A stretch of DNA of 61,741 nt, counting the filler, from Hausera hauseri (Eukaryota), in NCBI GenBank assembly GCA_046269625.1. It is 11 parts of 11 records of this genome, joined end to end, with 100 filler letters (N's around TTAATTAATTAA, not from the genome) between each part and the next. Parts side by side here need not be neighbours in the genome. Positions count along the whole stretch, not along the records: positions 11,922 to 18,134 come from JBJURY010125095.1; 10 more parts are not named here. One strand, given 5' to 3'. The notes under the pieces are model-generated. The model had not been told where the DNA came from, made no database searches, and saw nothing but the letters and a program-made list of their open reading frames with translations. The translations under genes were made by a program, and so were the position numbers. Of this stretch, positions 2,597 to 55,543 are shown piece after piece. Within the stretch, counting starts at the first letter, position 1. Every line of letters starts with the position of its first letter.

Positions 2597-3262
2597 ATGA
2601 ATGGACCAGCTCTTCTCCTGCTACTTCTCACAGGTAACGTTCTAGTAAATCTAGACACCATGCACCTAAACTTGACTCTGTCCTGAGTGGTCTCCCTGCC
2701 TTGTCTCCAGCCTGTGTGGTGAGAGGAGGAGTTCTGCAGTTTCTGAACATGATCGTTTGTGTTCAGCCTGACGTCAGTCCTCTGGCGTACAGTGACTACG
2801 GCTGCTACTGTGGCCACAAGGGAACTGTGGCTCCAGTGGATGAAGTGGACAAGTAGGTAACAAAGCATTTCTGTTTTAACCAAAGACTCTGTAAAATGTT
2901 TGATTCATCTTCAGGTGCTGTCAGACTCATGAAAGCTGCTATGAGAAAAGCAAAGTGACTCCAGGATGCACATCTATCTTTAAAAATCCTTACCTCCTCA
3001 TTTACAAATACAGCTGTACTGATAAACAGGTGACTTGCTCAGGTAAAGAGTAACTAATTTTTTATTTTATTTTTTAAAATTTGGGCGGACTGCATCTTGA
3101 GGCTGACCTCTCCTGACTTGCAGATTCTAATGGAAAGTGCCAGGCTATTGTGTGTGTGAGTGTGACCAAGCTGCGGCTCAGTGCTTCGCCAACAACACTT
3201 ACAACCCTCAAAACCAATACCTGGATTTCAGTGCCCGCTGTGAAAACACAGACTCTCATTAA
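2597..3262 (+). pseudogene. Secretory phospholipase A2 group IB-like paralog, frameshifted in exon 4 (pseudogene or sequence error)
   Basis: Coding exons 2597-2633, 2711-2852, 2915-3042, 3124-3262, all GT-AG with the same phases as the neighbouring gene. Motifs YGCYCG and CCQTHESCY. An extra GT in the (GT)n run at 3150-3158 shifts the frame before CECD. AATAAA at 3304. Confidence 0.9.
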
Positions 3263-5753: not shown

Positions 5754-8700
5754 ATGAACGGATCAACTCTCCTTTTGCTTCTCACTGGTAAGAATAATAA
5801 CTCTGTACATAGTGAACTTTTAAAGCCACTATTTGAAATCAGTACCTGGTCTCCCACTCCCCTCCTCCACAGCCTCTGTGGTCAGTGGAGGAAATGTGCC
5901 TAAAGCCATGTGGCAGTTCGGGAACGTGATCAAGTGTTATCAGCCTGGTGTTAATCCTCTGGCGTACAACAATTACGGCTGCTGGTGCGGCTTGGGAGGA
6001 ACTGGAACTCCGGTGGATGAAGTGGACGAGTAGGAAACAAGATCAAATTATCATTATTGTTAGTTTAAAGAAACAAAACTCTGGTTGTTCTCTAACCCCT
6101 CGTTGTGCTCTCAGGTGCTGTCGAGTTCATGACAAGTGCTATGAAGCAAGCAGAGAGGTTCCAGACTGCTCAAACATTTCTACTCTTCCCCACATCCTGG
6201 TTTACAATTACAGCTGTTCTGATACACAGGTGGAATGTTCAGGTAAGGATGTGGTCTGAAGGAATTTTACAGATATTTAGTCTTAAAAATATGCATTAAT
6301 GAGGTGAAGCTTTATGTTTTTGATTTCAACTAAAAGAGTTTTGAATGTAAAACTGCTGCAATGTCCTACTCAGACCATGATTTGACAAGAACATTGATGT
6401 AGAACAATTAGACTCTGAGCAAGTTATAAAACTTTCTGATGTAAAGAAAAAAACAAAGTTTCTTTTTGAATAAAGTAGTGAGGTGGATTAAGAGGATATT
6501 CCATAAGAATCTTTCAGCTGGTGATACAAGCACTAAATTTGTTACAAATGAAGTTCAGGATTTACTTGCATGAGAATGTAGGTTATCCACCTTGAAACCC
6601 AAGATGGCCACCACTTTTCATGGCCATCTCTCAAATACAAAAACCCCTAAAAACTGTGTAGAAGTTCACATAACTGAAACATGTTAAAGATTTAAACATC
6701 AAAAAAAATGTATCCTGACTGGTAGAACTCAATGATGTCAATTAAATTCCAACATGGCCACCAGTTTTTAAGATGCCAGCTACTCCATGCCTCAAAATGA
6801 ATTGATATACTGTGGTCAAGCTCTATTAGTTTGTATTCTTTCATATAGAAGTGATGTCAAAGCACAACCAGGATACACTGGTTACATCACTGCTGTGACA
6901 CACAGCATGTCGGCTTCTAGAGTACTAGCTGTTGTACTGGTATACTCAATCTAGTTTATAGTACTAAGCCCCTGTATATATCTAATCTAAAAGCTTAGTT
7001 GTAGTATTGCAGTAAGATAACTGAACCTGAATTGACAGGATGTGGCAACGCGGTACAGCTGAGCCAAGGGTGACGGGGCTTGAGTTACACATGGTGTACA
7101 GATTGAACAGGGTTTTAATGCCACTGCATGAATGATCAGGCATTAGGAGTAGGGCTGCACAATGTATCAAAAATTTATCATCATCGCAATAACAGCCTGT
7201 GCAATATGCATGTCGCAACTGCATAAACTGCAATAAATGGTTAGCTTTAATGTTTGCATTTATGCCTTTTGTCATTCAGATGGAAGCTTGAAGTATTTCA
7301 GCAGTCAAATGAAGCCCTTTATATGTTTGGTCAACCAAGTAGATCTCTTGATATTTAAAAAAATATTTTAGGTTAGAATGGAAATGATTAGTTTTTTAGG
7401 TTGTTTTCTTGGCTTTGAACCCCAAAAGATAAACACTTCATACTTTTGTATTTGTTCATTTATCGCAAGTGATATCATCATCACAATATTAAACACTGTT
7501 GTCGCACATCGCAGGTTTTCGTAATATCCTGCAGCCCTAATTAGGAGCTTGTACCAGTTGTATCCCACATTCAAATGTGCTTTAATCTTTTTATTTTAAT
7601 TTTATATTAACCTTTAATCAACCAGACAAATTCCATTGAGATCACAGATCTCTTTTGCAAGAGAGACCTGGGCCAGGTGGCAACCTATTGTACATGTGGG
7701 GTAAACCAGAGTACTGGAGAAAACCCACAAAAGCAGGGATCGAAGCCAGGACCTTCTTACTGTGAGGTATCAGAGCTAACCACTGAGCTGTCATGGTGTC
7801 TGATTTTGTTAATGCCATTTTTATTTATTAGTACAGTTGGGTGATAAAAAGACCTTCAGTCTTTAATCACATAACTCAAGATGTGAGCCAATAATCCATT
7901 GATTTGTATTACAACAACCGACCAGAGGAAGTGCTGCCTCTGTCAGACAGATAAAAGAGGAGTTTAAGTTTCCCCTCACCTGTTATGAGCGCACAATGGT
8001 AGCCACAAATGTAGCACTCTTTAAGGCATCAACCTGCTGCTCATCAGCTTAGACCAGGGGACTTATTCCCATGTGCATGTGTTGTAGGACAAGAAAAGCA
8101 AGGTTGATGAGGCAAACTGAACTTGTCTGCATGAAATCAAAGACCATATAGTACCATTCTTCAGACAAGTGAATCCCTCTTTCAGCATTGGAAAGGGTCT
8201 TCCTTCCAAGCTGTCTGCATATGAGTTCAGGCAACAGGCAACACCTGCTCACCTGGGGTGGCTCTAAGAGGGTGAGGTGTGACAAGTTCTTTGGACCACT
8301 TTTACACCGACTGCCCAGAGTTGTCAGCAGTTGGTATAATGTGTCTGCCAAGGACAATGTAAATGCTACTGCTTCACTTTTAAGCATACACAGCTGAGCC
8401 TGCAAATGTCAGGACCAAGTATAGAACCTACCAACATGTGCAAGTCATGGCCCGATTCAAACATCACTCACATTTTGAAAAATGTATAATGGAAGCTGAC
8501 ATTACCATGTAAATCAATAATATGTAATAATGCACTTGTCTATCCTAGAGATACCAGATAAACACTCATATTGCATATTACATTTTATCTTCTAGTACTG
8601 ATAAAATGTACTATGCACATTATTACAGCTCTAATACATTTCTCTAAATTTGGTGGTCATGTACCCTGACATCACTTTGAAAACCTCACAAAAGCCTTTG

Positions 8701-11921: not shown

Positions 11922-11968
11922 TCATTGATGCCAGTACCCAGAGTGATCCGGAGGACCGAATCCTTCTC

Positions 11969-11981
11969 AAAAGGGGGAGAA
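11969..11981 (+). other. Polypurine tract of LTR retroelement (copy 1)
   Basis: AAAAGGGGGAGAA immediately before TGTTAC; preceding 40 nt nearly identical to 52771-52823. Confidence 0.85.
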
Positions 11982-12671
11982 CTGTTACGACTCCTTAAAC
12001 AACATTTTGGACAAACCCCTTCGTGAAAACAACATTTTGGACAAAACTCTTCGATAAGAATTTATTGATAAAAATGTACATTTACACTTCACATTAGTAA
12101 TGTTGATGACTATTAAATGATTTTGAACATTTTGTACATTTATGATTTTGAACATTTTGTATATTTGAAATGAAATAAATCATTATCTTTGCCCATTATC
12201 TTCTTATCTGTTATCCTTCATTATAATATGTTAAGTCCCACATGATGGACATCCCTATTTTCTCTGTATTTTGTACAATTGATGTACCCCTAACCTTGTT
12301 GGTGAACTGAGAAGATACGTGTTCAGTAGAATAAAAAGAAATATTGCGAATTGTGGAGTGAGAATTGTGGAGTTTGTGGAATTGGAATGAATAGTTGAAA
12401 CGATTTGTTAAAAAATTAGAATGAATTATATGAATTATTGAATTAAATTAATAAAATCGTTATGTGAATTATTATAAGTAGAAATAAATTATTATATCAG
12501 ATTAATTATTATATTTCCATGAAATCATTATAAATTTCGATTTGGAATATTGAAAATAAAGTTTGGAATATATCAGATTAATTATTATATTTCAATGAAA
12601 TCATTATAAATTTCGATTTGGAATATTGAAAATAAAGTTTGGAATTTCCAAACACAGTAACAAAAATAGAA

Positions 12672-12732
12672 TGACGTCATTTTATTTTTAAAATGACGTC
12701 ACTCCCAAAATAGAACCAGGTAACTATATATA
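12672..12732 (+). promoter_or_regulatory. LTR promoter: two CRE palindromes and TATA box
   Basis: TGACGTCA at 12672-12679 and 12694-12701; TATATATA at 12725-12732; a 44-nt GT-AG intron (12804-12847) follows. Confidence 0.65.
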
Positions 12733-12851
12733 CCGTTGTGAAGTTCTTACAACAACATTATCTTAACCTCAACATATTTAATTCTCAAACTTGGAATTCG
12801 AAGGTTAGGTCTTATGCTGAATTTTTAAATGATTGTGATTATGCTAGGACC

Positions 12852-12903
12852 ATGGCCGTAAACAATAATGACGCTTCTACTAGTTCGTTGGAATCAGTAT
12901 CGG
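12852..12903 (+). CDS. Common leader exon, 17 codons + 1 nt (MAVNNNDASTSSLESVS, phase-1 donor)
   Basis: Kozak-like ACCATGG; ends G|GTACGT in phase 1, matching the phase of all downstream cassette acceptors; same-length counterpart at 53834-53885. Confidence 0.75.
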
Positions 12904-15096
12904 GTACGTGTATTCTCCGTTCACTTATTTTTGGTTTTATTTTATTTTTGTTGTAAATTTGTATTGATAATAAAATCTTATAAAATCAAATTGGAACGGC
13001 GTGATGACGGACAAGACAGTGTAGACCATGAATTGAAAGTTATTTAAGAAAGTCAGAGGGACTCGGATATGTGATGCCATCAATTGAGGATAAACCTAGG
13101 ATGAAATGATAAAAGATCGAAAGATATTCGAAATGTCGGAAGAACAGAGATAAAGATAAATCCCTTGAAATTTCGAGAGTGGTTATGAATAAATGTGTTG
13201 ATAGCTATTGTGGTTTGATCATGATATTTACAGTATTGACGATTATTACGGTTCGGTCATAATGTTTACAGCATTGATGATTATTATGATTCGATTGCAA
13301 TATATTTAGAGTATTAGCGAAGAATTTATTCAGCACAAGGCTGATTAAAAACCGTTTCATTTTTATGAATTTTAGATTTGATTCAGAGTAAAATAAGATC
13401 TGATATTTGGAGGACGGAACCCTTTGATGACGTATCGTTATGGTAATAACTATGATTGCGATGAGGCATATGAATTCGATGATATTTGGTGAAGTCGGCG
13501 GAGACGATAAATTGTGCGCATCTATTTGTATGACCGGATTGTGTGCATTTATTTTGTGTTTACATTTAGTTTGATTCTTAGTATTTGATTTCGTGTCGAT
13601 AAATTTGAAGTGTCTGCATTCAAATAGATAAGTCGGCGATGTACACGTTTTGTCTCCAAGGCATGGTGTATCTCTACGCGGTCAGGATCTAAATATACTT
13701 GTTGATGGTCATTTTATAAATATGTATGTGCATATAAACGCGCATTACACGATACCGGATGAAGAAGCACATACTAGTTGAATATATGATACATTCGAAT
13801 CACAATATCAGGATACCGCACACGTTTTCTGGACTTTGTATTTTCTCTGAATAAAGATTTTAAACGAATATTTTCAGTAGCAGCAGGAATACTCAATTTC
13901 GTATGAAATACGATTTTATTGTCTTGCATTTTCTAAACCTTAAAGCAATCAATGTAATCGTCTCAACCCAAAACTATTTCAATCTTGTTGATTATACGGA
14001 AATAATACATGTCACTGAACTGTTCTTCGCGTGAAACACATCATGAGAGTGTGTAATTGCATGCTTCTAATGAACGACATTTGGGAAATTTATTCTACAA
14101 AATATTTAACTTGATATTTTGAGTAATCCCTGAAATTCTAACGATATCATTGATATCACCTGACCTTCCTGTATTGTTACTATGTTTTGTATGTATATGT
14201 GAATGTTCTGTAAATTTAATGATCCCATGATATTTGGTACGTTTGGTGCAAGAGATTGTTGCGACGTCTGGCATTCTGAGGAGGAGTTTTGGGGACTGGG
14301 ACTCCCTCATAAAACCCGACTTCAAATCTCTTTTGATTTTAAGAAGGAAGAGTACGCCCATGATTGGCACATTTTAGAGTTATGTAGCATTACTTGAATA
14401 CGTAAGGTGTTTAATTTCCTTAGTGTATTTCGTAATCCAAATGATTGAGTTGGTGATATACAAGATTCCAATAATCAATATTCGAGGTGTTTAATTGTTT
14501 TAGTGTATTGCGTAATCCATTTTTTGGCCCGGGTGTATATTGATTATTGAATTCAGGACAAAGACGAGATTATAAGATGATACGACAATACCCTACCTCC
14601 TCTTATTATTTATTATATGATTACATAGAATGAGCTCTCAGCCGCTGACTTCTATTACCATACTTAAGGATAATTCCCCTCACTGCATTTAAATTGACTT
14701 ATAACCGGGACAGGAATTAATATATTTCGATTAAATTACCTCAGAGGATAAGAAGGATTCATGATGATAGACGATATAGAAAAATTTCGAAAACAATGGA
14801 ACTCACAAACCTTCAGGTCAGGAGACAAACGGAGATACCCCGATCAATTAGCAAGGAGCAGGTGTATTGGGTAGAAGTACCTTATGTTTGAGAAAACTCA
14901 AGATTGGATCAATAACAGTAAGGTGAAACTGATTTAATGAAGAAATATATATTTATTTCGGACTCGTGAAAAATGATCTTTTTAAGCAGAGGAGTTTGGA
15001 TGAAAGCGAGTAATGGGAATGCGAACGGATGTGAATTATTTATATGTTAGGTACTGTTTAAGGTTACATTAACCCCTGTACCACCAACATATAAAC

Positions 15097-15114
15097 TGGT
15101 GCCCCGAGTGAGGA
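15097..15114 (+). other. Primer-binding site complementary to elongator tRNA-Met
   Basis: TGGTGCCCCGAGTGAGGA matches 17/18 to the complement of the vertebrate elongator tRNA-Met 3' end as I recall it (TGGTGCCCCGTGTGAGGA); first 15 nt identical at 55489. Confidence 0.82.
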
Positions 15115-15176
15115 CACCATATTGATAAAATGAACAATAATTTTAAATAAAATTGTTATATAAATTTGAAATTTAG

Positions 15177-15463
15177 ATGACGATCCATATGCACCATTGA
15201 AATGCGAAATATGTTATGGACTACTTGGGAGGAACTATGCGTTACTGCGATGTACGCATATTATGTGTGTTAGGTGCGCGGACCATTGGCTGTCAAAAAG
15301 TCAAACGTGTCCTTTTTGCAGAAGAAGGACCAGTTCCTATCAGTCCAGAGGGATAACTATAGTGGTAATTTATGATGGTGAAGAAGACGAGAATCCGGCA
15401 GAAGGAGACCAACATGACTTATATGTATATGGGCCTAACGGGCTAGTCTATATGCCCATTTGA
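15177..15463 (+). CDS. Cassette A: C3HC4 RING-finger terminal exon
   Basis: Acceptor atttag|, phase 1; CEIC..CTH.MCVRC..CPFC; in-frame TGA at 15167 and no in-frame ATG before the first Cys; AATAAA 15471. Confidence 0.9.
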
Positions 15464-15541
15464 TAATTATAATAAAGCTGTTTTCAAGATTGATTGATAT
15501 TGAAGAATTAGAATTGATAATATTGAAATGAACATATTTAG

Positions 15542-15783
15542 GATGTATCATATGTAAAAAACTAGAAGAGGATCAAAATGAAGGAATTCAATGCCCGCTA
15601 TGTGAGTTTATCGAAAAATTGGATCAGTCAGAAGATTCGTTCACATGCGCCTACTGCGAACAGGATGTGAGTTTGGGCCTGATGACCATGGACGATGAGT
15701 GTTTTTTGTTGTGTCCTGTATGTGCCCTGACATGTGATGATATATGGGAAATTAAAAATTTGGCAGGAATCCCTGACTTGTGA
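15542..15783 (+). CDS. Cassette B: four-CxxC zinc-binding protein terminal exon (not in ORF track)
   Basis: Acceptor atttag|, phase 1; GCIICKK..QCPLCEFIEK..FTCAYCEQ..LLCPVCAL..IPDL*; homologous to 56034-56254; AATAAA 15798. Confidence 0.85.
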
Positions 15784-15892
15784 ATAATTATGAGTTTAAT
15801 AAATCTTGGCATTTGAAATTTGTTTCACTAATTGGAAGAAATTATTTATAATGAAAATAGAATATAATAGGAATAAACTATTACTGTTTAAG

Positions 15893-16350
15893 GAAATGGA
15901 AACGGAAATAGAAACGGAAATGAAAATGGAATGGAAACCAAAAAATGCCCTATTTGCCTGGAAGAAGTAGCAACCCAAAAAACAATATTACCTTGCAGAC
16001 ACCAGTACTGCACAGCCTGTATCGATACCTGGATGATGGTACAAAATACCTGCCCATGTTGCAGAAGAGCATACGTTTTATGCTGGCTATGCTATCAACT
16101 GATATCCGACGACATTGTAGAACTCTCTTGCAAGCACACATTTTGTAAGGAGTGCATCAAAACCCATGTTGAAACATACCAATTATGCCCGTATTGCTAT
16201 GAAGACATTGATTACTATATGATAGAAGGGATGATCGTGTATCTGAACATTATTGAACAACCAACTATGACATTAGTGATTGATGAAGATGATGGCAGTT
16301 GGCCAGAAGCGTGGAGAAATCCACAACCATATATATTAGATATAAATTGA
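15893..16350 (+). CDS. Cassette C: tandem double RING-finger terminal exon
   Basis: Acceptor tttaag|, phase 1; two back-to-back C3HC4 RINGs (CPIC..CRH.YCTAC..CPCC, CWLC..CKH.FCKEC..CPYC); AATAAA 16355. Confidence 0.9.
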
Positions 16351-16400
16351 AATTAATAAAATTTATCATAGTGAGTTGCTTATTCTCTTTATTATTTAAG

Positions 16401-16696
16401 GTTATTTCCCCGACTTGAATTCCGTACCTGTTTTATCACACGGATTTCAACAGAAAGTAAATCACTATTATTCCATCTATAATCCAAATGGAAAATTCAC
16501 CGCAATAGGAAAAGAATGCACAATATGTCTCAACAATTACTCCACCAACCCAGTTGAGTTAATATCCTGCAAACACCAATTCTGTCGCTGCTGTATAAAG
16601 GAGTGGTTTATTAACAATAACACTTGTCCGACATGCCGTACAATTAACAAACTGTTCTTGTACGAATATAAATATTATACCATAAAGAATTTATAA
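16401..16696 (+). CDS. Cassette D: RING-finger terminal exon
   Basis: Acceptor tttaag|, phase 1; CTIC..CKH.FCRCC..CPTC; the frame has no ATG at all and an in-frame TAA at 16397; AATAAA overlaps the stop (16696). Confidence 0.9.
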
Positions 16697-16743
16697 ATAA
16701 AATTTGTTTAAAGTTCTGATTTTTGAAATATAATGCATTGTAG

Positions 16744-17966
16744 ACGAGATAAAAGAAATGAAAAAGGTTCAATTTCAAACTCCCAGATATTGCGAATATA
16801 CCAAATCAGTGCAACCTAATACAATACAGTACATCCTATGTTATCAGAATAGACAATTCGGACCAGCCTCATTCATTAAGAAACGGATAACCTACTCTAA
16901 AATGACAGTGTCAGACAGCTCCATGAAAGATACACAAAATAGAAAGATATCGTTTCTAGAACATCCAAATTCACCCGTCCCGGGAGAACTAGCTCAATTA
17001 TATGCCAACGCCGGATTATTCCGAACCACAGCAGGAGAGATAAAATGTTTATACTGTCAGGGAGAATTTCAATATGAACAATTAAAAAATAGACCGAAAG
17101 AAGAACATAAGAAACTGCGCGCCACTTGTCCCTACATACTAGATGTAGATGTAGGCAATATACCACTCATCGACACATTTACTAGGAAGCCCGACCTGGA
17201 TCCAGACGCTAAGTACGACGAAATAATATCTGCACAAATAGTTTATTCAATCGATAATATAGTAGCAGAAAATATACAATTAATATCGGATACAGTACAA
17301 GACAGAAAATTAACTTTTCAAGGGAATAGAAAAATGAAGCATTTGGCCCGACAAGGATTGATATCGATATTCAAAGAAGGAACACAATACGTCAAATGTA
17401 CTAAATGTCTTAAGGAAACATATTGGTTGGAAGAAATCGACCAGCGATGCCCGGCAGTGTTACATACCAACAAATGCGAGTACTCAGTATATAAAATATC
17501 CGATAATAATACTAAAAAACAATGTAGAATACAATTTAACACAGGAAAACTGTATGAATGTTATCAAGATAGTCCTGTGGCCATATCGGTAATATCAAGA
17601 CATCCTACCAAAAGAGAAAACATACTACAGTATATTAAACATCAAACGGAAACTCAGCCCGATTGGTCGCCAAATGTATTCGACCTGTGTCAAAATCTAA
17701 ATTTTATTGATCCAGAGAAAGAAAGAGAACCTGAGCGAAATATTCTTGACAATCTTTACCTTCGCGATTTGGAGTGTGTAATCTGCTACACGGATGTGGC
17801 ACAAGTTATCTTCTTACCTTGTGGTCATTTGAAAACCTGCGAAAATTGTTCAAGTCAAACAACAAACTGTCCGGTCTGTAGAAGCAACATAGAGAGACGA
17901 GTGACGTATTTTCAGTTCTCGGAAGAAATTAGTGAAATAACTTTGACAAATATGGACCTTGACTAA
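16744..17966 (+). CDS. Cassette E: inhibitor-of-apoptosis-like protein (BIR, degenerate BIR, RING)
   Basis: Acceptor ttgtag|, phase 1. BIR1 RKISF..AG..CLYC-x16-H-x6-C; second BIR-like RKLTF..CTKC..H..C; IAP-type RING CVIC..FLPCGHLKTCENC..CPVCR. No internal intron needed. AATAAA 17988. Confidence 0.92.
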
Positions 17967-18041
17967 TAATTAATGTGAATTTATTTGAATAAACATTATT
18001 TACGAATTTGTTGAGTTAAAGTTAAAATAGACTTATTCTAG

Positions 18042-18134
18042 AATCTTCGATTATCGATAACATGACTTTGCCCAACCTCAACGACTGGATAATCCAAGTG
18101 ATGACGATAAAGAATCAACCACCTAAATTAGCAT
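18042..18134 (+). CDS. Cassette F: start of a further phase-1 exon, truncated by contig end, product unknown
   Basis: Acceptor ttctag| about 50 nt after the IAP AATAAA; phase-1 frame ESSIIDNMTLPNLNDWIIQV... is open to the contig end (only about 30 codons). Confidence 0.55.
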
Positions 18135-18234: not shown

Positions 18235-18400
18235 TCCTAGTGTTGGATTTGGAATATTATTTAATTTATGTACTATTGTAACATCTGCAATGTGGTTGTC
18301 TGGTAAATCTTCAGAACTATATGCAATGTCATGTTTTAGTGCTGCAGCATCTACTCGATTTATTGGTTTTGACCATTCATGTGTGTAAGGTTCCACCTTA
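18235..18400 (-). mobile_element. Parvovirus-type PLA2 (PLA2X) domain fragment, Polinton/adintovirus-like
   Basis: KPINRVDAAALKHDIAY..HIAD matches the viral PLA2 DxxAxxHDxxY motif; truncated by contig start. Confidence 0.75.
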
Positions 18401-20237
18401 CAAAAAAATACTATTAACAAAATCAAAAAAATAACAATCGACAATATCACCGATTCATCCTAAGTAAAAAATACTAAAATTAAAATTTCTTAACATTTTC
18501 ATGAATTCATCTATACAAAAATAAAGATAGCAGAATGAAAAGAGGAGAATCACAAGTGCCGAAGTGACCAACACTTTGTGATAAACAACAAAAATTTGTT
18601 TAAATCCACAGTTTAAAGCTAGTTGTTTTATAATCAAAAAGAATTATTTAAAAAATCTGAAAAAGAATTTTTCGAAAAAACAATTCCAGAAAGTTCCGAA
18701 AAACTATCATTAAACATTCTCAAAGTATCGTCTGTTCGCCACTACAAGAACAAAACCACGACCAAACCTGGTGAACCCATAATCAGGGAACAGGAGAAGT
18801 CAAGTGTGCCTGTTCCGCCTCCCGCCAAGCCCAAAATTGGTGAACCAATCACCCGAAACGAAGGCACGGCAATCACGTCGAAACCGGAAGCCAATTGCGA
18901 AGTCAGATTCAACAAAGTCATCAATTTGACATCGGGGTATTGGATCCCTACGTGATATTAACCAGTACTGGCGAGAATACAGGACCCAGGCGACAGTTAA
19001 GTCTTAACCCTCAAGCCAGACCAGCCATGCTTGACCCGGTGAGTCACCGTCTCCCGCGGAAGACGACGCTGTAACCCCGACAAGCGAGCCCAGTACCGAT
19101 CCTATTCGGACTTTCTGATGGTACGGGAGCTGTTGCAACGGAGCCGTTTCGTACGGCTCTTTGCCAGGTTGGGACGAGATGATTCCTACTCCTTACCTGT
19201 GGGAACCCTCCACCGGTTTTACGACGACGGAGAAAATTGACGACTTTTCGATTCATCGGTTTTCCTGCCGGACTTCCTAAGACTTATGGCGGCCGCCGAC
19301 TGCCTTTTCGAATCGCTGACTCCCTCAGAGAGCCAGTTGATTCCGGAACGCCGAATCCCTGAAAAGCGGCGGACAAGGACTTCGAGCTCTGATGAAACAC
19401 CAATTCCGTGTCGCAGACGCCGCTTAGATCCGACACGACGGAAAGCCGCACGGATGGATTCAAATTCGGACGATACTCCGACTTGTCCACGCCGAAGTCC
19501 AAGGATTAATCCGGCCCTGTCCTTACCCGAATACTCCTACGCCTCGGCGGACGATTCACGAGAATTTAATAAAAATTACTCTCGTTATTTTTTCGTCTTC
19601 CATATTTTTGTTTCAGTCGTTTTATTCGACTGTATTTACATGTTTTCCCGTTTTTTGATTGAAAGTTCCATCCACAAGGAGAAGAACTCTAAAATGGTGG
19701 CAGGGGTTACCGCATTAACGCCTTATAACACAAACGCAGCCTTTGAAATAAATCCGTCTCAAACACTGCACAAAACCTTTGATAGCATTCAGGCTCAAAT
19801 TCACACAAGTGCCGTAGAAACTAATCCGGTCACATTCGTGCATCACCAAACATGATCACGTAATACCCACAAACAGTTGTATCACCAAAATCAACTGCAA
19901 TCAGAAATTTACAACGCGTGACAGTGAACAAGTGTTAAAATATTCTAGCACTAACACATGCGTCAACACCGTCAAATCGGAATACAAACCCGATTATACG
20001 AACCGCTACAAAATAGCACACACAAGCAAAAAGTCGCTATTTAACGATTCACCCAATCGTCAGTCGACTGAACTCGCCAAACGAAGTACAACTCATTGTA
20101 CAAAATTGGCGTCATACGAAAGCTCATCGCTTTCCATCCACTCTAGATATGTCGCGAATGCTGGGAGTTTTAAACCAACAATATCCCGAGCATACATTGC
20201 GCAATCAATACAATTTTCATAGACAATAACATTATAC

Positions 20238-23200
20238 TGGGGGCTCCAAAACTAAAAGGAGGCGTTGACATCCACAAGCCCTACAAAAAAGCTGAAACTG
20301 CTTCAGCATCACCGGCTAAACCACCCTAATTCGCGTGTCCCACCTTCATAGGTTCAGACGGAACTGCATTGAAGTGGTTCCATGTGTTTGAAACATGGGC
20401 TACTCAATGCAGCATCACGAGCCAACTAAACAAGGCCTTAACATTAATACAATACCTGCAGCCAACAACGCTTGCAGCAACAACGGATCTGGACACGTTA
20501 TTGTCAGATGAAAAGCCGTTTGGCAGAATCAAAGCATATCTGCCATCCCAACAAGACCAGTTCAACTTGGTTTTAACCAAGCGACAGACATGGAATTTGA
20601 AACCTCCTCTGCTTCAAAAGTTACGCTCAGACTTGAGCAATGCTGAGTTGGACCTCCAAAGCAACCAGCACATACCACGGCGCTACTTCCTGAGTAGTTT
20701 GCCAAAGCAAATTCAAGCCGCCTATGTGCTATTACCGCCCGACACAACATTGAACGATATGACATTAAGCTGACAAAATATACGAGTGCATTAAAGGCAC
20801 CGTAGAATCTGCACTAACGCAAAACATAAACTCCGTCATAGCGGCCTAGCACAATCAGTTGGACACGATTATTGTCGCCCTGTAGGCACTTGTAACGCAC
20901 AAGAATCTGCCAGCCAAGGACAGACCGTCATCTCGGCGCCAATCCCAAAGAGAAAGTAAGGCAAATTTTCCAAAATTTGCCATTTCCACACTCGATTTGA
21001 CGAATCCGCCTACAAATCTTATCTTGGTTGCCAATTCGACAAGTCGTCGGCAAATATAAAAATGCAACACTTGCATTTATCACAATCATTTCGGTCCGGA
21101 TGCAAAATCTGTCGACCTGGCTGCATATTTTAGAAGCCATCAAAAACTAAATGAGCTCGGCGACCAACGGCACGTCGACTGGAAACCCAATCACTACAAC
21201 TGCCGTACACAAATAACGAACGCATTGTCGATGCTATTTTTACTCTCAAGGCGGAGCCACTACACTCTGACATTTCGATACAACTAGATTTTCTAATCGA
21301 CAATGGTGCAGCTATATTGCCGATACTTAGCGCATGCGCTAGACCTACGCTGGTGTCACATGCATCACGCAATGCTGCCAGTGGCACGCGAATATCAACC
21401 ACAGGTACTCTGTACCTACAATTTTATCTCCAAGGCCGAGCATACGCTTGGTCATTCATATTGGCCGATGTCATGCAACCAATACTTGGTTCTGACTTCC
21501 TAGATCACTATGATCTTACCGTGGATTGCCGAAATCAACATCTCACCAGCGGGAGCAATCCATTACCTCCACCCGCACTCACGCTAACTATAAATGCGGT
21601 CACGGGCATAAAAATTGCCAATCCCATTGACATCGCACCATTGCTCCAAGCGCAATATCCTAACTTGTTGAAACGCTCAACACAACCAACTCAAAAAAAG
21701 GTGAAAACATCATCCTTTCTCGTCACATCATGTGATCGACCGATTCGGCAACCCCGGAAGGAGCTTGACCCTGTCAAGAGAGCAGCCGCGGAAGCCGAAT
21801 TCCGACACCTCGAAGAAGCAGGCATCATACGCCGCTCTACATCGCCATGGACATCACCATTGCACATGGTTCTTAAAAAGGACGGTTCATACCGGCCTTG
21901 TGGTAACTATAGAATGTTAAACAACGTCACCATCCACGATTCATACCAAACACCGTTGTTAACAGATATATTGCATCGTCTACATGGTGCCGCAATATTC
22001 AGTACAATTGATCTGGAAATGGCATACCACCAGATCCCATTTTCTAACAAAGACATTCCAAAAACGGCCGTAATAACGCCTTTTGGTTTGTTCGAGTATC
22101 TATGCATGGCCACAGTTCTCTTCCTGAACGGCTAGAAACCATCAAACAAATACCGAAGCTATTCACAGTGACTGGACGTCACAGTTTCCTTGGCACGATC
22201 AATTTCTGCCATCGCTACATTCCACACTGCTCGGAAATCCTTTCACCTCTATCTGCTCGAAACCAAGGACCCAAAAAATGCCAGGTAAACTGGAGGGATT
22301 AAAATGAACAGGCATTTGCTTTTTCACATACCTACACTACACTATCCTAAACGAGATGCACCTTTCATCTTAACAACAGATGCATCTACAATCGCTGCAG
22401 GCGCCATGTTTGCTCAATCAATAGATATCAAAAATGCTCCCATTGAATTTATTTCCCACAAATTCAATTCGGCTGTGCAACGCTATTCAACTTTCAACCG
22501 AGATTTACTAGTCATAATTCTTAGTGTCAAACACTTCACACATTTCCTCGAAGGAAATGTGTTCACAATCCGCATGGATCACAAACCGCTCATTCGCATG
22601 ATGAGTATGAAAAACCCATCTCCTCGTCAAGAGCGACACGTTATTTCTGTCAAAATTCTTATTCCAGATAGAACACATAACTGGAAAAGATAACAGTTGC
22701 TGATTTCTTTCCCAGAACTTGGATATCGACAATATCCTTTGACCAAATTTTCACGGAAGACGTTCTCCGATCGCACCCTCCACATGAAGATGATGTTACG
22801 TTCTTCAAAACAGTAGACACAAAGGATGGAATACACTACAATACCATCTTTAATGGTTGTCGACGCCAAATTCTTGCAGTGAACCTACGGAAACAGGCGT
22901 TTGACACCATTCACAGCATTCATCACCCTGGATAAAAAGCCACAGCTCGCCTATTAAGCAGTAGAGTTTGTTGGCCTCGCATGCTACGTGACATAAAGCA
23001 GTGGACAAAAGAATGCTCACTTTGCCAACAGTATAAATTCAACAAGACTACAACCACTAATCCTACACTATCCTACTGGCTCACGGTTTGAAACTATCCA
23101 CATGGATATAGTAGGACCACTTTCTGAATGTAACGCATATCAGTACATCCTAACCATTCTCGAGTGGAAAACAAGATGGCCCGAAGCCATTCCAATCCGC

Positions 23201-23357
23201 CAAATAACAACGCAAAGCGTTGTGTCTGTATTGCTATAAACATGGATTTCTCGATTTAGAGTACCTAAAAACATTATAAAAGATCAAGGTACCCAATTCG
23301 AATCAGCCATGTTTAACCAATTAACCAAATCGCTTGGTTCAAAGCATATACATACAT
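20238..23357 (+). mobile_element. Decayed Ty3/Gypsy LTR retrotransposon gag-pol
   Basis: PBS-like TGGGGGCTC (tRNA-Pro) at 20238 after AACA; gag PTFIG..WF..FE; protease FLIDNGA; RT SPWTSPLHMV..YRPCGNYR..TPFGLFEY; RNase H LTTDAS; integrase HMDIVGPL and DQGTQFES; many stops and frameshifts. Confidence 0.93.
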
Positions 23358-23457: not shown

Positions 23458-23850
23458 TGTAAAGCATCCAAGAGTCCATAAATATCCGAAACTGGAAACG
23501 TGAACTTCTCCGTAATTGTGTTCAACTTCCTAAAATCCATGCACATGCGAATAAACCCGTCGTTTTAGGTATCACCACCAGTGGTGTATTCCAAGGGCTT
23601 TGTCATGTCCTGATAATTCCGCTGTTCAGAAATCGGTCGATCAATCTTTCAACCTTTGGCTCCAAGTGAATCGGAAGTCTCCTGGGCGGCTGCGCAGTTG
23701 GGTCGCCTGTAGTTTCAATGTAATGTTGCACGATCTTTGTATGGCCTATGTCAAAAGCTGAAACCACAAAAATATCACCGTACTTTTGAATCATCCGCTT
23801 GAGAGATAGGTGTGCTGCAAAAACTTCCAAGGCCAACTTTTCGTGAAATT
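23458..23850 (-). mobile_element. Gypsy RT N-terminal fragment of a different family
   Basis: QHYIETTGDPTAQPPRRLP..SGIIRT*QSPWNTPLVV..MCMDFRKLN. Confidence 0.85.
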
Positions 23851-24289
23851 AGGTTGAACGCAGATACACGGTCAAACGAACCCATAACAGTGCAATCCAA
23901 AATCTTGATGGAACAGAATATCTTTATTTTCAAAAATTTAAAAAATCATTAGATCCATATTATGCTACCATGAAGCATATTTCTATGTACACATGTCTTT
24001 ATATTTATATATAAAAATTACGCAGATTAACACACAATGAATATTGAATTTTAAAGCGATCATACCAAAACAAACACAAAATCAAAAAAAAGATAACAAA
24101 CGCCAAACGATTGTCGAAATAAGTGTTACACATAATCAGAGAGAATGAAATACAATGTAGATACAGTTAATGAGATCAACGTAGACTAATTAAAATAAAA
24201 TGAGCTAAAATGACTAAAGGAGAGAGATGAGATTTATTAACAAATGTTCCGGCTAGCGTCTAATGTTTTGAATGTGCGAGACGATGCTA

Positions 24290-27200
24290 TTGGTAGGTCT
24301 ATTCACTGGCAGTTATAGTTTCATTCCAATTGTATTTTCGCATGAGATTTGATATGATAGTATTCTTCTGTCTGCTAAGAGGCAACATTGAAAAAGTGTG
24401 AAATGATGCAATTTTCTGATTGACAAAAATATAATTTGCTAGGTCACTCTGCCTGGATGGAATAAGAATAACTGAAGTCTGGAACGTCAAAATATGATGG
24501 ATCTGTTAATGGTGATTATATGTTGGAGATTTGGTTCATAATTGTGAATAATGACTTTTTTGACATGTAGGATCGTATGTCTAATACATAGACGTTGGTT
24601 CCAGCACTCTGACGAGAAACCGAGCTGCGCCAGCGACCATGGCACCACATCACCTCCCCTGTGTAGAAAAGAGACTGTAAAAGTGAAATGGAATGATGAA
24701 GATAATATGGATGAGAGCAATTGAGTCGTGAAAAGGAGCAATGTTTGGTGCCTATTCCGTTTTGGTATGAGTTAAGCGTTGTGTGCCATCAATAAACTTT
24801 TCTCTGCTGTACATATTGAATGTCACTTTACGTACCTTACTCGATGGATTAGCGCTGGGCTGTTGTGTGATATTTTGTGATGGGAGTGATAGTAAAGATG
24901 AGTCAAGCAAGAAAGGAGAGGAATGTTGTGAGCATGATGACGGACAGTGAAGTGAGACGGATGGAGGAAATGATGATGATTGAGTGTAGTCGAGTAGTGA
25001 TTGCTGCATCGACGCGAAATCGTTTAAAGTTAGTAGAATTACTAGCTGAGTTTGAATTAAGTGTAGAATTGTTATCTGGAATGTCGTCGATGAAAAAGGC
25101 AGGCTTCAGATTCGAAATGTGGGACTCTGTACGGTTTATCTTGGCATAAGATTGTTGCTGTGTGAAATGAAAGATTCAGCAGTTTGTACGGGCCAACATA
25201 CTGAGGTTTAAAACCAGAAGAAGATTGACCTTTTAACCACACAAACTTGGCGGAGTATAGATCCTTCGGAATGTAGGATTTGTTGTTATTAAAGAGGCGG
25301 CAGAATGAATATGAGCTGACCTCGACGAAATGAGATTGCGCTGCACGAATGTTCTTATCTATGGGGTTGTCGTCGAGATCAGAAAGTTCAAATAAAGCCC
25401 GAATTGGAGTCCCGAAAAATGCTTCGGCTGGAGCAGAACCGGTAGTGGTCAAAGGTGTGTTGCGCCAACCTAGCAGAACAAAAGGTAGAATGGACGTACA
25501 ATTACGATTAGTATCAGCCACGATTTTTAGAGAAATTTTCATTGTGCGATGAAACCTTTCGAGAAGGCCCTTTGCTTGGGAATGATATGAAGTAGTATGA
25601 AAATGGGACATCCACAAAAGTTTGACAAGTGATTTGAAAAGTTTAGACTCAAATTATGGACCTTAATCCGTTATTATGTACCGTGGGGAACCAAAGCGAT
25701 TGATCCAGATTTTAATAAAAGCGTCGGCTACTGAATCAATGTTTGATGAACGAAGAGGAACGGCTTCAGGCCAACGAGAAGCACGATCCATCATGGTAAG
25801 TATGTGCTGATATCCGTTGTCGGCATATAAAGGACCAACTAAATCAAGGTGAACTGTATGAAAGCGTGATGTACAGGGAAAGTGGTAAAGTGGTGATTTA
25901 AGATGTTTGTTAATCTTGTATTTTTGACAGGCAATGTATTCTTTGACCCAGTCTTGTACATCTTTGCGCATTGACGGCCATACTACATGACGTTGAAGCA
26001 GGCGAAAAGTAGCTTTGGAACCTGGATGATGGAGTGAATGCGCATGAACAAAAGCTGGCTTTTGTAAAGGTGGTGCTAGGATAACCTTTTTATTGCCTGT
26101 ATTAGATGTATCAAAAGCTATTCCATCAATGATCTCGTAGGATCTGAAAGAACTAAGGAGATCAACGGATGGTTGATTGGCCTTTAAGACTTCAGATGAG
26201 AAAATTGGCTCAACTGTAATGGATCTAACCGACCTCGATAGAAAGTAAGCTACCAAGTTATCCGTGCCTGAGATATATTCCAAAGTAAAACTGAACGTTG
26301 ATAGGTATGATATGTGTCTCTCTTGCCTTCCTGATAGCTCTTTTAACGACATGATGTGCGGCAGAGGCTTATGGTCAGTTTGAATTACGAATGGACGAGA
26401 GAGAAGTAAGTGTTTGAAATGTTTTACTGCCAGAACTATGGCAAGTAACTCGCGATCAAATGTGGAGTAACGGCTCTCAGGTTGTGTTAGTTTCCTAGAA
26501 TAGAATTCTAATGGCTCGTCGACACCATTAGAGATCTGGTGTAGTACAGCACCAATAGCTGTGGTAGAGGCATCGGTTGTAAGAATAAGATCTGCCTTGG
26601 GTTTTGGATAAGCCAGTATTTCAACTGTTTTAAGACCCTCACGTAAATGATCAAATTTGGTTGCCAAATGAGGAGTCCAGTGGATCAACTGTCTCTTTTT
26701 TCCTGAAGATAAATGTGCGAAAGGTGCCGTAAACTCAGAGCAATGAGGCACGTATTTGTGGATGAAATGGAGTGTGCCTAAAAAACTTCTCATGTCAGAG
26801 GTAGTTATTGGTAGAGTTATGTTCTTTAATTGTTGTAATCGATCCGGTTGTGGAGAGTGGCCGTTAGGAGTCATGACATGGCCTAGAAAATTAAAACGAT
26901 TTTGAAAGAAATGACACTTGGCGAAATTGACTTGCAAATTGCTATGATGTCATCTGTGAAAGATAACACGAAGGTGTTCCTGATGCTGTTTGACAGACGT
27001 AGAGGTAACTAGTATGTCATCAATATATGGATGAGCGAAATCTAGACCTGAGAGTACAGTATCAATGTGCCGTTGGAAAGTTTAAGAAGCACTACGTAAA
27101 CCAAATGGCATAAAGATATATTAGTAGAGGCCAAATGAAATAATGATAGCAGTTTTTGGAATATCATCATGTGAAACAGGAATTTGATGATATACTTTAT

Positions 27201-28272
27201 GCAAGTCAATTGTGGAGTACGTGTTAGTGTTGGTAAGGCTGTGCAGGATGTCATTTATAAGAGATAAAGAATACGCATCCATGACTGTTTGACTATTTAA
27301 CTGCCGATAATCACCGCATGGTCTGTATGTGCCATCTTTCTTCGTCACAACATGCAAAGGCGAAGCACATGGTGATTTGGATCGTCGATTTGAACTCTGA
27401 TTCAACAGCTTTTCGTCTGCGAAGTGAAAGTGGCCTTACCTTTTGTTTAATAGGTTTTTGGTGTTCGGTGACTATGTGGAGATATGTTGTAGAATGCGGC
27501 TTGAAATTGATCTCCTTCTTAAGAGTACGGGAACAAGAAGTTTTAATGTAGGATTTAAGGTCAGAACCCAACGATAAGAATGATGATGGCATATCATTAT
27601 AAGAGTCAGTTGCTGTAATTGATGTAGAATGACTAAATGCTTCATTAACGACATTTGGTTCAGCCGATTGTTTCAAGATTGCTCCCACTGGACGAGATTA
27701 AAAATACTGATAAATTGTTAAGTGTGTTGTTATCATCCGATGAACAGAATGTCAAATTGATATTTGAATGAACAGAGGAGGAAAAAGTGACCGACTGGTC
27801 GTTTGGTGAGCATTTGCTAGAATTTGCAACGAAATTTCTGCGCAGGATGCATTTATGCTGGCAGTCGACTAACAAATCGTATGTAGCTAGGAAATCGGAG
27901 CCTATTATTGGCGAAAATTCTCCTGGTAGGTTGGAGAATGTAAAGAACAGTTTTGTGGTACCTACAATGTTCAAAGGTTGACCACAGGCAGTGAAGAGTG
28001 GAGGAGAGAAAACTGTGTTAGATGTAGGAGCAAGAGACAAAGGAAGAAGTGAAAAAGCAGCTCCTGAATCAATAAGGAAATCTACGTGTGATGTGTCCCC
28101 AAATAATAGATCAGCTTTCAACAGGAAGACTGCAGAAGCGGTGTTGAAACGGCCAGTAGTTTGAACGATATTGCCTGTAACAGAATGTGCCGTGGCATCT
28201 GGTGGCATTATTGGTTTTTTGAGACTTGTTGGTATAAGGCGGAAGAATGGTGAGTACGCGGAGGCGAAGAAA
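24290..28272 (-). mobile_element. Decayed Ty3/Gypsy element: protease, RT, RNase H, integrase, PPT and 3' LTR
   Basis: FLIDSGA, YRPCGDYRQLN, YIDD about 27017-27028, LTTDAS, HLDLVGPL, ERFHRTMK. PPT AGGGGAGG (24653-24660) then TGTGGTG starting at 24649. Left LTR boundary uncertain. Confidence 0.93.
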
Positions 28273-30118: not shown

Positions 30119-30801
30119 CTACAAATCCCTGGGCAAATGGCACTGATCTTTGACAAACCACGTCCTGAGATCTGGATATGTCTTGTTCTTCTGATCTGTC
30201 CATAATTTCTTACAGACCTCACAGAATATGTTCTCACCAATAGATCGATACTTTGATTTCTCCATTAACATGGCCAGGTACTTTTGCTTGTCTTTAGAAA
30301 GATTCAATAAAAACGTCGCCAGATCTTCCGGAGTCTTGAAATCCGAAGCGTCAATAAAAGTATCGGGTGGGAAGAATCGTTTATAATCTGCACCTCCACG
30401 AACAACGGGTATCACGTCAACATTTTTAAAAATCTTGAAGAATTTTTCCGTGACGTAATCTTTACAGAGCGTGTTTTCAAAAGCCAGGTAGAAAAAATAT
30501 GATCTTGACAACATTGGCAAACACAAACTATCGTCTATAGCACGTTTGTTCAATCCTTTGGAGCAGTTATAAGTTCCACAGCTGCCGAAGACGTGGACGT
30601 CAAGTGACTTCTGCATACGTCTGACGTATTCATCTCTGCCACTGGACGTCCGGCAGTTACTAACGAACCAAGCAGCTGGAAATTTTTTGCTGTTGACTAT
30701 TTCGTGATAGTTCTTTTGAGGTAAGGGCTGTCTTGCTAATTTTCCATACATGTGTACAATGTCAGAGTCCAAACGGTAGGTCATTGTCCAATTGAACTGG
30801 C
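30119..30801 (-). CDS. Alpha-1,3-fucosyltransferase (GT10), last coding exon
   Basis: Acceptor ttctccag| at 30802-30803; FNWTMTYRLDSD, AWFVSNC, YFFYLAFENTLCKDYVTEKF (alpha-1,3-FucT motif), FIDASDF; open to stop. Confidence 0.93.
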
Positions 30802-41774: not shown

Positions 41775-42044
41775 ATGAAACAGGTAAAATATGGCCTGTT
41801 GGCAAAGAAAATAGGTGACAGTGACTTGGATGCATTGGAGGAAACGATGAATAAAGTGGACAATGATTTTATAATTTCCAATGATATTCGGGACACATCC
41901 TCGCTTTTCCTTAAAGGCAATATGGCGAAAATTATGGATGCAAGTGGACAAACAGCAGTTTTGACAATGAAAGGGGTAAAAGGATACTTAACAATGAAGC
42001 TGAAAAGATATAAGGAACTATGTGGTATTAAATCGCCAATGTGA
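41775..42044 (+). CDS. Hypothetical protein (possibly partial) convergent with the PolB gene
   Basis: 89-aa protein-like ORF from contig start, AATAAA about 20 nt after stop; no recognisable domain. Confidence 0.45.
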   Translation: MKQVKYGLLAKKIGDSDLDALEETMNKVDNDFIISNDIRDTSSLFLKGNMAKIMDASGQTAVLTMKGVKGYLTMKLKRYKELCGIKSPM

Positions 42045-52173: not shown

Positions 52174-52829
52174 ATTTTTCAAGTAGCCTTACACCACATA
52201 AACGTTATGACTCTTTTACGACAACCATCTTCAATATTACAGCCACGTTGCCAACCTGAGCAAATCACTAGATTATTGCCTGAATTGCCAATGCCTGCAC
52301 TTTCAATAATACCTATACCAACCATTTTTTACAGTTCACCACTACCAATATCCTTACAAGAAGATTGGTTTCCTGTCCTCAATAAATGTCCAATTGACTT
52401 TATATCCGATCTAGCCCCCCCGACTTATGGGCAACATTACAATCGCTCTACTATGATCAACTTCCTACCTATGAATGCACTATATGCCTTACAGAAAGAA
52501 TAACAGTAGTTCAGTTTCAGTGCAACCATAAATTATGTGCAACATGTTTCAACAAACTTCGTTCTCAGACTGTCAAATCAATTTACCCGGAAGAAGCTCT
52601 CCAAATGACCTTCCAAAATGGCATTTCATGCCCATACTGCCGACAACCATCAGTCTACTACCACTTCTTCTATACCTAATACAACCGTACACAACGACTA
52701 TGCCATTGGATAAATCCAGTAAACGATGCGACACTGACAATCAGACCTAGAAATCTCAGCTTTATAAATGTCAGTACGCAGAGTGATCCGGAGGACCGAA
52801 TCCTTTTACAAAAGGGGGAGAAATGTTAG
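52174..52829 (+). pseudogene. End of the last internal ORF of retroelement copy 2, containing a C3HC4 RING and running through the PPT
   Basis: From 52476 CTIC..CNHKLCATC..CPYC; one TAA at 52677; same frame continues to STQSDPEDRILL, identical to the peptide at the start of contig 2. Confidence 0.75.
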
Positions 52830-55481
52830 GATAAATTACTATGGTATCGATATGGTATATGATCTGATTATCATTATTATGATATTGACAATAACCATTT
52901 AATTATGGTATCGATATGGTATATAATCTGACTATCATTATTATGATATTGACAATAACTATTTAATAATCGACTATGAAATGAACTATAACTGTTATAT
53001 CGTCGACTATGATTTTGATCGTTGCTTGAACTGTTTGAAACAATTGTCTGTTGTGATTATTGTAACTGAATAAATCATTTTCTTTCATCTTGGTTTCTTT
53101 GTTGAACCCCTTCTGATGGGTATCTTTAAATCACTGTCCATTGTACAGTAATTGTGAGCCAGATAATTAAAGCGGCAATATAAAAATTCAATTATAATTT
53201 CGAAGTGAATTTCAAAATAAGTAGACAGGAACAAACAACAGTAATATCAATATTTAAGGGTAGTTGTAAAGTGGATTCAATTTATAGAATAAATAAAATC
53301 GTTGCAGAAATAAACATAGAGCAATTTGCAAAATTACAAAATCGTTGCAGAATAGATTTTAAATAAACAAAAAAAGCAATTTACGAATGTTTATAAGCAC
53401 AAACATAAATCAATTTGCAAAAATGAGATTCGGTGGCATGTGATTTCAACAAATAGATTTTAATTAACAAAATTGAGGAGAAACTGGTATAAATACCAGT
53501 CAAAAAACAGAACAACAACAACACCAAAATTTTCTTATTGCTAGCATATAGTTGTTGACCGGTACATCGTGAAGAAGCCAAGTAGTAAGTTTACTACTGT
53601 TTAATGTTCATTTTGTATTAAAAGAAGGTAAATAAAATATATAAAGTATCTGCAGTACATTGAATCATATATTGTGAACGTGGAAGAATTTGGAAACAAA
53701 GTAACCCAAGATTTACAAATTATCAAAACACACATCGTTCATTTGAGGAAATTGAAATTTAACGATTGGATATCTTTCATTTGAAACGAACATTCTTACA
53801 TTATTCGTTATAATTACAAATAGTAATCGCTATATGGCAGAACAAAATACCCATGCTAATCCGATAAACCAACCGGAATCATCAGATTAATATTGTTTAA
53901 ATCGAGTATATACATTGTTATTATGCAATTTATCATAATTAAATAAAAGGGGTTACTGAGATGTATGCAAATGTATTTAATTGTTTTTATGAATAAAAAT
54001 TTTCCATAAATAAATGAATTCTCTTATAATTATTAAATTACCGTATAACGATTAATTTAGAATCAACGAGAAAAATACAAATTGTTCTTAATAGTGTGAG
54101 CTACCAAATCAAGTCTAGCTGAATGCGATAAACGAATCCATCGACGGATAAAAATGGAGCTATTGATGATGGAAACATAAATTCGAAGTTACCTGAGAAC
54201 GTGGAAAAATGTCAATTGCCGTAACCAACGTAACACCGCCCTTCGAGTGAAGATATTGTTATTTACCTGCGACTGATTGAAATTCGGTTTTACGAATTAA
54301 TATCGAAGATTAAATTGTCTATTCTTAACTAGCGCCTATAAAATATTTCATTGAATTCATCTTGATAATTGATGTGGTATATGATCCGACGGATCCATAA
54401 GATAATAATGTTGAATAAGAAAGAGAACAGGCGACAAATTAAAGATATTTATTTCATTACATAGTAACATAATAGTAGCAGTACTATAATCATATCAGAG
54501 ATGAAAAGTGTTACTTGTGGGCATAACGTGAGTTCAAGCGTGTTTAAGGGAAGTTACGCTCGATGTGTGTAGACATTTGATGGGTACAGTTCCAATATAT
54601 GTTTATGGGATTATTATTGCTTATAATGACGATTGTTAAATTAAGGAAAGAAACTTCTGATCTTATATTTTGGAATAGTCAAAGAAGATTGATGATACAG
54701 CAGGAAACTGGCAATACTCTTGAATAGTAAGGAACTTCACACGAGGAAACGTAAAAATGAGTATCCTTCAACCTAGCCTATATATATTTTATTATGGTAA
54801 TTGTAAAAAATCACCACCATTGATATGTTTAAAGGGAGAGAGTTGTAAAAAGGGGATATACCCAGATCAATGAATTGAATCATTGGTGTAACTTGGAAGG
54901 AGTCGTATATTGCAAAAGATAGATACATAGTCGAAGATACTTATAAATATAAACTACAAAAATATGACAATAAGGAGGGTATGAATTATCCTTATTAAGA
55001 TTGTCCCTTATAAATATATTGACCTATACTAAAGTTTGAAATCGAGTAGAATTCTTAAGACTTTAACTCACGTTTACATTTTCACGTCATAGACATATAT
55101 ACTTCCACTTAGTGTTTTATATTGGTATTAATATTTCACTAATCAATTACTTACTTGTTTTGTTTGTATATTTAATATGGATATCTTAAGTTATAAGTAT
55201 CTTCGTCCTCCGTCAACCCATCAAAACATTCACGTTTGTTTTAACCATACCTAGTTTATGAATCTTGAACAGATAACTAATAAAGGGAGTTTTATTGTGG
55301 TAACATCATTATTGAGATCAACGAATTAGTAAATATCAGATGGAAAGAGGCATAAATATACTACAACCCATGAAATCCCGGAAGAAAACCCGAGTCGCCC
55401 CTAGTTATATTTTCGAGGCTATCTTTTATATGTTGGCACATATTAAAGGTCAACTATTTATCTTTGACCCCTGTGCGAACA
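52824..55481 (+). mobile_element. Putative giant LTR (2658 bp), copy 2
   Basis: PPT AAAAGGGGGAGAAA 52810-52823, TGTT start, AACA end 7 nt before the PBS; approximately 63-bp tandem duplication 52841-52967; TATAAATA 53488. Confidence 0.72.
53834..53885 (+). CDS. Leader exon counterpart, 17 codons + 1 nt (MAEQNTHANPINQPESS), donor degenerate
   Basis: Same length, MA start and ES-containing Ser-ending tail as 12852-12903; preceded by acceptor aaatag (53823); followed by ATTAAT instead of GT. Confidence 0.55.
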
Positions 55482-55488
55482 TATAGAC

Positions 55489-55503
55489 TGGTGCCCCGAG
55501 TGA
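55489..55503 (+). other. Primer-binding site (tRNA-Met), copy 2
   Basis: TGGTGCCCCGAGTGA, identical to 15097-15111. Confidence 0.8.
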
Positions 55504-55543
55504 ATAATTTTAGGAGAAATTTTACTTGAATTTTGAAATTTAG

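Follow-up and report, generated by a model that had tools for sequence, protein, structure and literature searches.

Several groups of LTR elements share features with the locus described here. The giant gypsy-like elements of planarians known as Burro and GYPSM1 are animal LTR elements whose cargo includes BIR, RING-like, and ubiquitin-related domains, and the Dugesia tigrina element is reported to have an accessory ORF upstream (relevant passages of PMC6431247). According to the same passages, the Burro BIR is embedded in a polyprotein of 4,873 aa that begins with Gag. The Ogre elements of dicots have LTRs of 1.9–6.5 kb and one or two extra ORFs (as accounted for in PMC6431247), so that an LTR of 3 kb is no record. 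In foamy viruses, the LTR itself holds the major splice donor, 5' of the poly(A) signal, U1 suppresses 5' polyadenylation, and U3 measures 777 nt (parts of PMC3694450 dealing with the LTR). The extra ORFs of bdelloid rotifer LTR elements are typically expressed from spliced messages (main text of PMC5408684). Finally, the cellular and baculoviral IAPs (cIAP1, XIAP, DIAP1) combine BIR, with its zinc ligands, and a C-terminal RING.

The window analyzed here is a stretch of 61,741 nucleotides from Hausera hauseri. It consists of 11 contigs of about 4–12 kb each, joined by ten identical N44-12nt-N44 linkers (starting at 11822, 18135, 23358, 28273, 32407, 36801, 41675, 46431, 52074, and 57099). As the window is a linker-joined bundle, neighbors across the linkers are unrelated, and the contigs may stem from several animals. 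Two separate short contigs, at 11922-18134 and 52174-57098, carry the copies hereafter called A and B. Both show the same layout on the + strand: a polypurine tract (PPT), a long AT-rich stretch running from TGTT to AACA, 7 nt, and a PBS. In copy A, the PPT match is at 11969..11982, the predicted LTR (3107 bp) at 11983..15089, the spacer at 15090..15096, and the PBS, of elongator tRNA-Met type, at 15097..15114. In copy B, the PPT match is at 52810..52823, the predicted LTR (2658 bp) at 52824..55481, with computations started at 52826, 2 nt short of that position, and the 7-nt spacer and PBS together at 55482..55506. Both LTRs have 4-bp terminal inverted repeats (TGTT/AACA), and in both copies the PPT lies directly 5' of an LTR with TG...CA ends. 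A 20-nt motif covering the PPT and the LTR start matches the window at 11968-11987 and 52809-52828 only, and a 26-nt motif covering the LTR end, spacer, and PBS at 15086-15111 and 55478-55503 only, each with 0/100 shuffles matching. On these motifs, the copies appear to show genuine long-LTR element ends, and we infer that both stretches are LTRs of which the two ends are real.

The preliminary description, which had claimed a single LTR of 2.7–3.1 kb per copy, with the PPT on the left, the PBS on the right, and a 7-nt LTR-PBS spacer, is thus borne out. Its preference for an elongator over an initiator tRNA-Met primer also holds. The PBS of A agrees at 16/18 positions with a published tRNA-Met PBS (PMC1084362 Table 2), a human rather than a host reference, and at 7/18 with the initiator-Met PBS (PMC1797187); for B, the corresponding figures are 14/18 and 7/18. 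PMC1797187 regards the earlier Met construct as elongator tRNA. The window contains no tRNA genes, and a tRNA gene with a PBS-matching 3' end was found in 0 of the 13 viral loci searched. Both a 7-nt LTR-PBS spacer and an elongator-Met primer are uncommon, without being unique.

No second LTR, target-site duplication, gag, or pol was found on contigs A and B, each of which has one LTR. Fragments of RT, RNase H, integrase, or DNA polymerase B were detected with Pfam on five of the nine other contigs, as expected if mainly repeats were assembled. Among them, decayed gypsy-like pol fragments, none linked to A or B, lie at 18235-23357, 23458-28272, and 48000-52073 (two being 65% alike), and Maverick/Polinton DNA polymerase B-like fragments at 41775-46430 and 57199-61741, the last contig also holding a TBP-like frame (58331-58822). 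The window further contains a single-exon fucosyltransferase (GT10) fragment at 30122-30853, presumably gastropod-like in its look, a phospholipase A2 exon at 5930-6256 with a related piece at 2736-3049, and a long, degenerate microsatellite of TTCC/TTCG type at 46531-47958, which yields spurious long ORFs.

Behind the PBS, copy A carries a row of five zinc-finger/RING/IAP cassettes on the + strand. Cassette 1 (15177..15463) is a C3HC4 RING with a phase-1 acceptor and an AATAAA 10 nt from its stop, cassette 2 (15542..15783) has four CxxC pairs, cassette 3 (15893..16350) is a tandem RING-RING, cassette 4 (16401..16696) is a RING without an in-frame ATG, and cassette 5 (16744..17966) is IAP-like, with a BIR and a C-terminal RING. 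Copy B has cassettes 1–4 in the same order and on the same strand (55544-55833, 56034-56254, 56316-56722, and 56768-57078), and its contig ends behind cassette 4. Gaps between cassettes measure 45–200 nt. Orthologous pairs share 44–68% amino-acid identity, and over 394 codons the A and B cassettes differ with pS 0.77 (synonymous sites near saturation) and pN 0.28; the cassettes are under purifying selection across the diverged copies. Among the 40 of 634 variants listed, 12 of the 20 located inside frames are synonymous and none creates a stop.

The IAP-like frame reaches the Pfam cut-off for BIR and RING in the window protein and has PDB profile matches, and the alignment of four members shows the BIR in three and the RING in all. 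A degenerate second BIR-like repeat (CxxC, H, C), to which Pfam is blind, lies at 17280-17480 and is kept in three relatives. Cassette 2 encodes a small four-CxxC protein, conserved between A (15542-15783) and B (56034-56254), with a weak IBR match, a poor fold, and no confident family. Predicted folds are poor (pLDDT 41.7 and 49.4), the first reaching about 75–80 in its BIR part only. The cassettes are predicted to encode ubiquitin ligases and one apoptosis inhibitor, whose targets probably belong to host defence or cell death. The profile of cassette 1 gave three matches over most of its length, all ENA proteins, and the RING-RING search 14 generic matches. None of the 79 generic RING loci combines a PBS motif with cassettes or pol, and no related loci were found in the viral and metagenome contigs searched. 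A further RING frame (52398..52679, + strand) stands just before the PPT of B, at the 3' end of the internal region, and none of its five candidates is a longer relative. Two overlapping frames precede this PPT (52174-52679), the second ending in the RING with a long insert, and they are possibly one broken accessory gene.

The cassettes share signals at both ends. The first AG is in phase 1 and at most 10 nt from the frame start in 9/9 cassettes, compared with 42/136 control ORFs of the window having a phase-1 first AG within 30 nt. An AATAAA stands at most 24 nt from the stop in all cassettes except cassette 2 of B, which has none (8/9 versus 7/136 control ORFs), and both signals occur together in 2/136 control ORFs. 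As the A and B cassettes are orthologous, these are five independent cases rather than nine; for five cassette types, the phase has a p of about 0.003 and the poly(A) signals one of <1e-5. Five of the nine cassettes have no ATG before their first CxxC.

The LTRs contain a set of signals that may complement those of the cassettes. In A, the predicted U3 (11983..12750, + strand) has short tandem duplications of 27, 25, and 76 nt, as well as two CRE-like TGACGTCA words, at 12672 and 12694, ahead of a TATA box at 12725 (+743). In both LTRs, short tandem duplications extend over the first 660 nt, the TATA box of B is at 53488 (+665), and ACAACAAC is found 24 nt after the TATA start in both. A candidate shared coding exon of A (12852..12903, + strand) opens with an ATG in ACCATGG context, comprises 17 codons plus 1 nt, and ends at a phase-1 GT donor (12904); the first AATAAA behind this donor (12969..12974, + strand) is the candidate LTR poly(A) signal. 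In B, the donor is at 53585 and the AATAAA at 53631, the distance between the two being 65 nt in A and 46 nt in B. The TATA-donor-AATAAA order of both LTRs, a looser pattern chosen after seeing the data, recurs in 4/500 and 14/500 resampled LTRs, and the TATA regions of A and B align with a score of 40, below the shuffle maximum of 48. The B exon before the donor has no ATG, and B therefore needs another coding exon under the model set out below. In A, out-of-frame ATGs lie upstream of the exon ATG, and the six AATAAA before the TATA box could end the RNA earlier.

On balance, it seems just probable that A and B show merged long LTRs of a multi-copy LTR retrotransposon, in which the LTR would hold a promoter and a first exon, the latter spliced to one cassette at a time. 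The LTR promoter would produce a single primary RNA, which, when read through and left unspliced, would be the genome, primed by elongator tRNA-Met. Otherwise, the LTR donor would be spliced to one cassette acceptor at a time, the cassettes serving as alternative last exons, and the RNA would be cut at the AATAAA behind the chosen frame, giving one RING/IAP protein with a short common N-terminus. U1 at the donor might hold off the poly(A) signal of the 5' LTR, by analogy with foamy viruses. U5, spacer, and PBS would be within the intron, which would leave U5 free to grow and drift. More tentatively, and short of calling it probable, we propose that, in an animal LTR retrotransposon lineage, a foamy-like donor in a 3-kb LTR runs at least five switchable RING/IAP ligases, and that the 2-kb U5 is a fast-turnover cargo bay hidden in the intron and giving multi-kilobase strong-stop DNA.

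With TATA, donor, and AATAAA at similar offsets, the remaining interior of about 2.1 kb in A and 1.8 kb in B would be U5; in A, this predicted expanded U5 covers 12990..15020 on the + strand and is unalignable to B. Similarity between the LTRs is confined to their ends, the interiors giving no alignment by blastn or translated search: the heads are weakly alignable, and the tails adjoining the PBS are common to both copies (score 77, against a shuffle maximum of 31). Such an interior could have been built from captured host mRNA scraps, an origin compatible with the promoter-and-cassette model but rather unlikely. It would account for an interior wholly different between copies. As reverse transcription begins with U5, a template switch in this region would end up in both LTRs. 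A 158-codon antisense frame of the interior, longer than 195/200 resamples, also speaks for capture, and the template-switch mechanism is known for internal captures (PMC5131818, in the part concerned with them). The searches speak against it: the LTR interiors gave no Pfam match in 12 frames and no PDB sequence match in 4 of the 12 frames, and the 158-codon frame no Atlas match. Nor did the interior of LTR A match Rfam, contig A as a whole giving one chance-level Rfam match.

The predicted U3/R/U5 borders might also lie elsewhere, with promoter and poly(A) signal in the first 250–340 bp, nearly everything behind them being U5 and the TATA box at about +700 a second, internal promoter for the cassettes. 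This arrangement, which would make U5 longer still, is improbable. It draws on the AATAAA that the preliminary description had placed about 190–250 nt after the TGTT, and which is indeed found at +192 in A and +246 in B, on the weak TATA-like words before these signals, and on three contigs of a public run (X2, introduced below) that leave the A sequence at 12292, so that a conserved block ends at this position. The head alignment that pairs the two early AATAAA has a score of 71, within the shuffle range (maximum 76), and MAFFT aligns them differently from the local alignment. However, tandem duplications, which are typical of U3 enhancers, reach about +660 in both copies, and the early TATA-like word of B is present within one duplication copy only.

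The single LTR per contig, with the PPT to its left and the PBS to its right, had been attributed to tandem elements sharing an LTR, a 1-LTR circle, or assembly collapse. All three options hold, collapse being the likeliest, as the diverged A and B both show this topology. Most probably, the 5' and 3' LTRs were merged by a short-read assembler. This explains element interior on either side of one LTR in two diverged copies, and the recurrence of the topology in copies with synonymously saturated cassettes suggests a systematic cause. A and B have in common a block of 64 bp that runs as far as the LTR start, the 60 bp before the PPT being 90% alike.

Public-run comparison relied on the contigs of three DNA-type runs from three studies, X1, X2, and X3 (shares 0.66, 0.37, and 0.05), X1 possibly being the window's own source; no RNA run was among those listed for the stretch, which has no bearing on expression. 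One contig each in X2 and X3 extends A leftward with sequence like that preceding the PPT of B (18/25 letters, by eye), so that the left neighbor of the LTR is element interior, and B-like LTR starts are joined to the same PPT block in four contigs of X2 and one of X3. Individual contigs leave out a part of the LTR (12298-12661 in X2; 14444-14708 and 14837-15068 in X1), indicating that LTR length varies, and one X3 contig skips cassette 4 (16333-16673), so that cassette number may vary between copies. No piece spans the whole LTR among the 24 longest pieces listed from X1–X3, and no junction of an LTR end with flanking DNA occurs among the 18 of 559 loose ends listed. Summed contig depth, which does not represent copy number and is not counted as evidence, is high at the LTR head, the tail, and the cassettes, and low or absent at 12962-14209.

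A real junction, in which tandem elements would share one LTR through unequal recombination or array growth, yields the same topology, and X1 holds the interior of A in a small number of long pieces that are nearly identical (600 and 387 letters), as for a single locus. Nevertheless, two diverged copies show the topology and all other features point to a short-read, repeat-rich assembly, leaving the tandem reading with a small chance, below that of the early borders. The splicing model is unaffected by the choice between tandem and collapse.

Less likely still, the cassettes might be separate genes on a polycistronic RNA resolved by spliced-leader trans-splicing, since acceptor, frame, and AATAAA with gaps of 45–200 nt are also operon-like. 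The flatworm spliced leader ends in AUG and would thus need phase 0, whereas all nine acceptors are in phase 1, and in five frames the zinc domain is not preceded by an ATG. An origin of the contigs from 1-LTR circles, which form as by-products when reverse transcription is active, is hardly to be expected either: the topology would be the same, and cassettes that are open and under purifying selection suggest that the family may be active, but no circular closure was seen, contigs A and B both end inside the internal region, and 1-LTR circles are usually rare relative to integrated copies. As slim is the chance of a true LTR of about 340 bp, which the preliminary description had named as its refuting case and in which each contig would string together a 3' LTR, unrelated DNA, and the terminal part of a second element: the unrelated interiors of A and B would fit, but there is no AACA end near 12330, self-comparison found no copy of the LTR head before the PBS (so that a short LTR would require both contigs to be chimeric), the shared tail is found only beside the PBS, and the same accident would be needed in both copies.

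Neither long LTRs nor anti-apoptotic cargo are new in themselves, and assembly probably accounts for the odd topology. The LTR promoter, donor, and poly(A) signal, together with phase-matched cassettes, are likely to constitute a new expression layout, the novelty, if true, being one LTR exon shared, through alternative splicing and polyadenylation, by a whole row of ubiquitin-ligase cassettes. The mainly open-access literature covered gave no RING arrays, alternative last exons, or elongator-Met PBS in animal LTR retrotransposons. Were the model true, a retrotransposon would resemble a large virus in deploying several accessory ligases, and one could test directly whether host defence or cell-death proteins are degraded by transposons. 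A U5 of about 2 kb would also extend the limits known so far for first-strand synthesis. LTRs of this size escape common LTR-finder settings, such as the 80–1500 bp of a mollusc survey (methods given in PMC6238403).

Compared with the systems described above, the locus differs in each case. The Ogre elements belong to plants and their extra ORFs are of unknown function, a RING/IAP array being absent from the account in PMC6431247. The bdelloid rotifer elements have a single extra ORF3, 3' of pol, and RING is unmentioned in the main text of PMC5408684. The IAP-like frame of A differs from known IAPs in having only three close relatives (45–54% identity), all on ENA contigs. Foamy viruses are retroviruses, with an LTR layout called unique to them in the sections of PMC3694450 concerned; A and B match it at the level of motifs only, and their predicted U5 is about 2 kb. 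Lastly, the kinship with Burro raised in the preliminary description reduces to a resemblance, and membership in Burro or GYPSM1 is not supported. In A, the BIR-RING occupies a distinct frame, which has a stop and an AATAAA to itself and is bounded by stops on either side, and no Gag is present between the PBS and the BIR; a second BIR might lie deeper in the element. Burro is further characterized by an internal region of over 20 kb and a planarian host. It places its BIR in a polyprotein of about 5,000 aa that begins with Gag (as set out in the portions of PMC6431247 and PMC11410931 dealing with its layout), unlike A, which has five short frames, each with its own stop, acceptor, and poly(A) signal.
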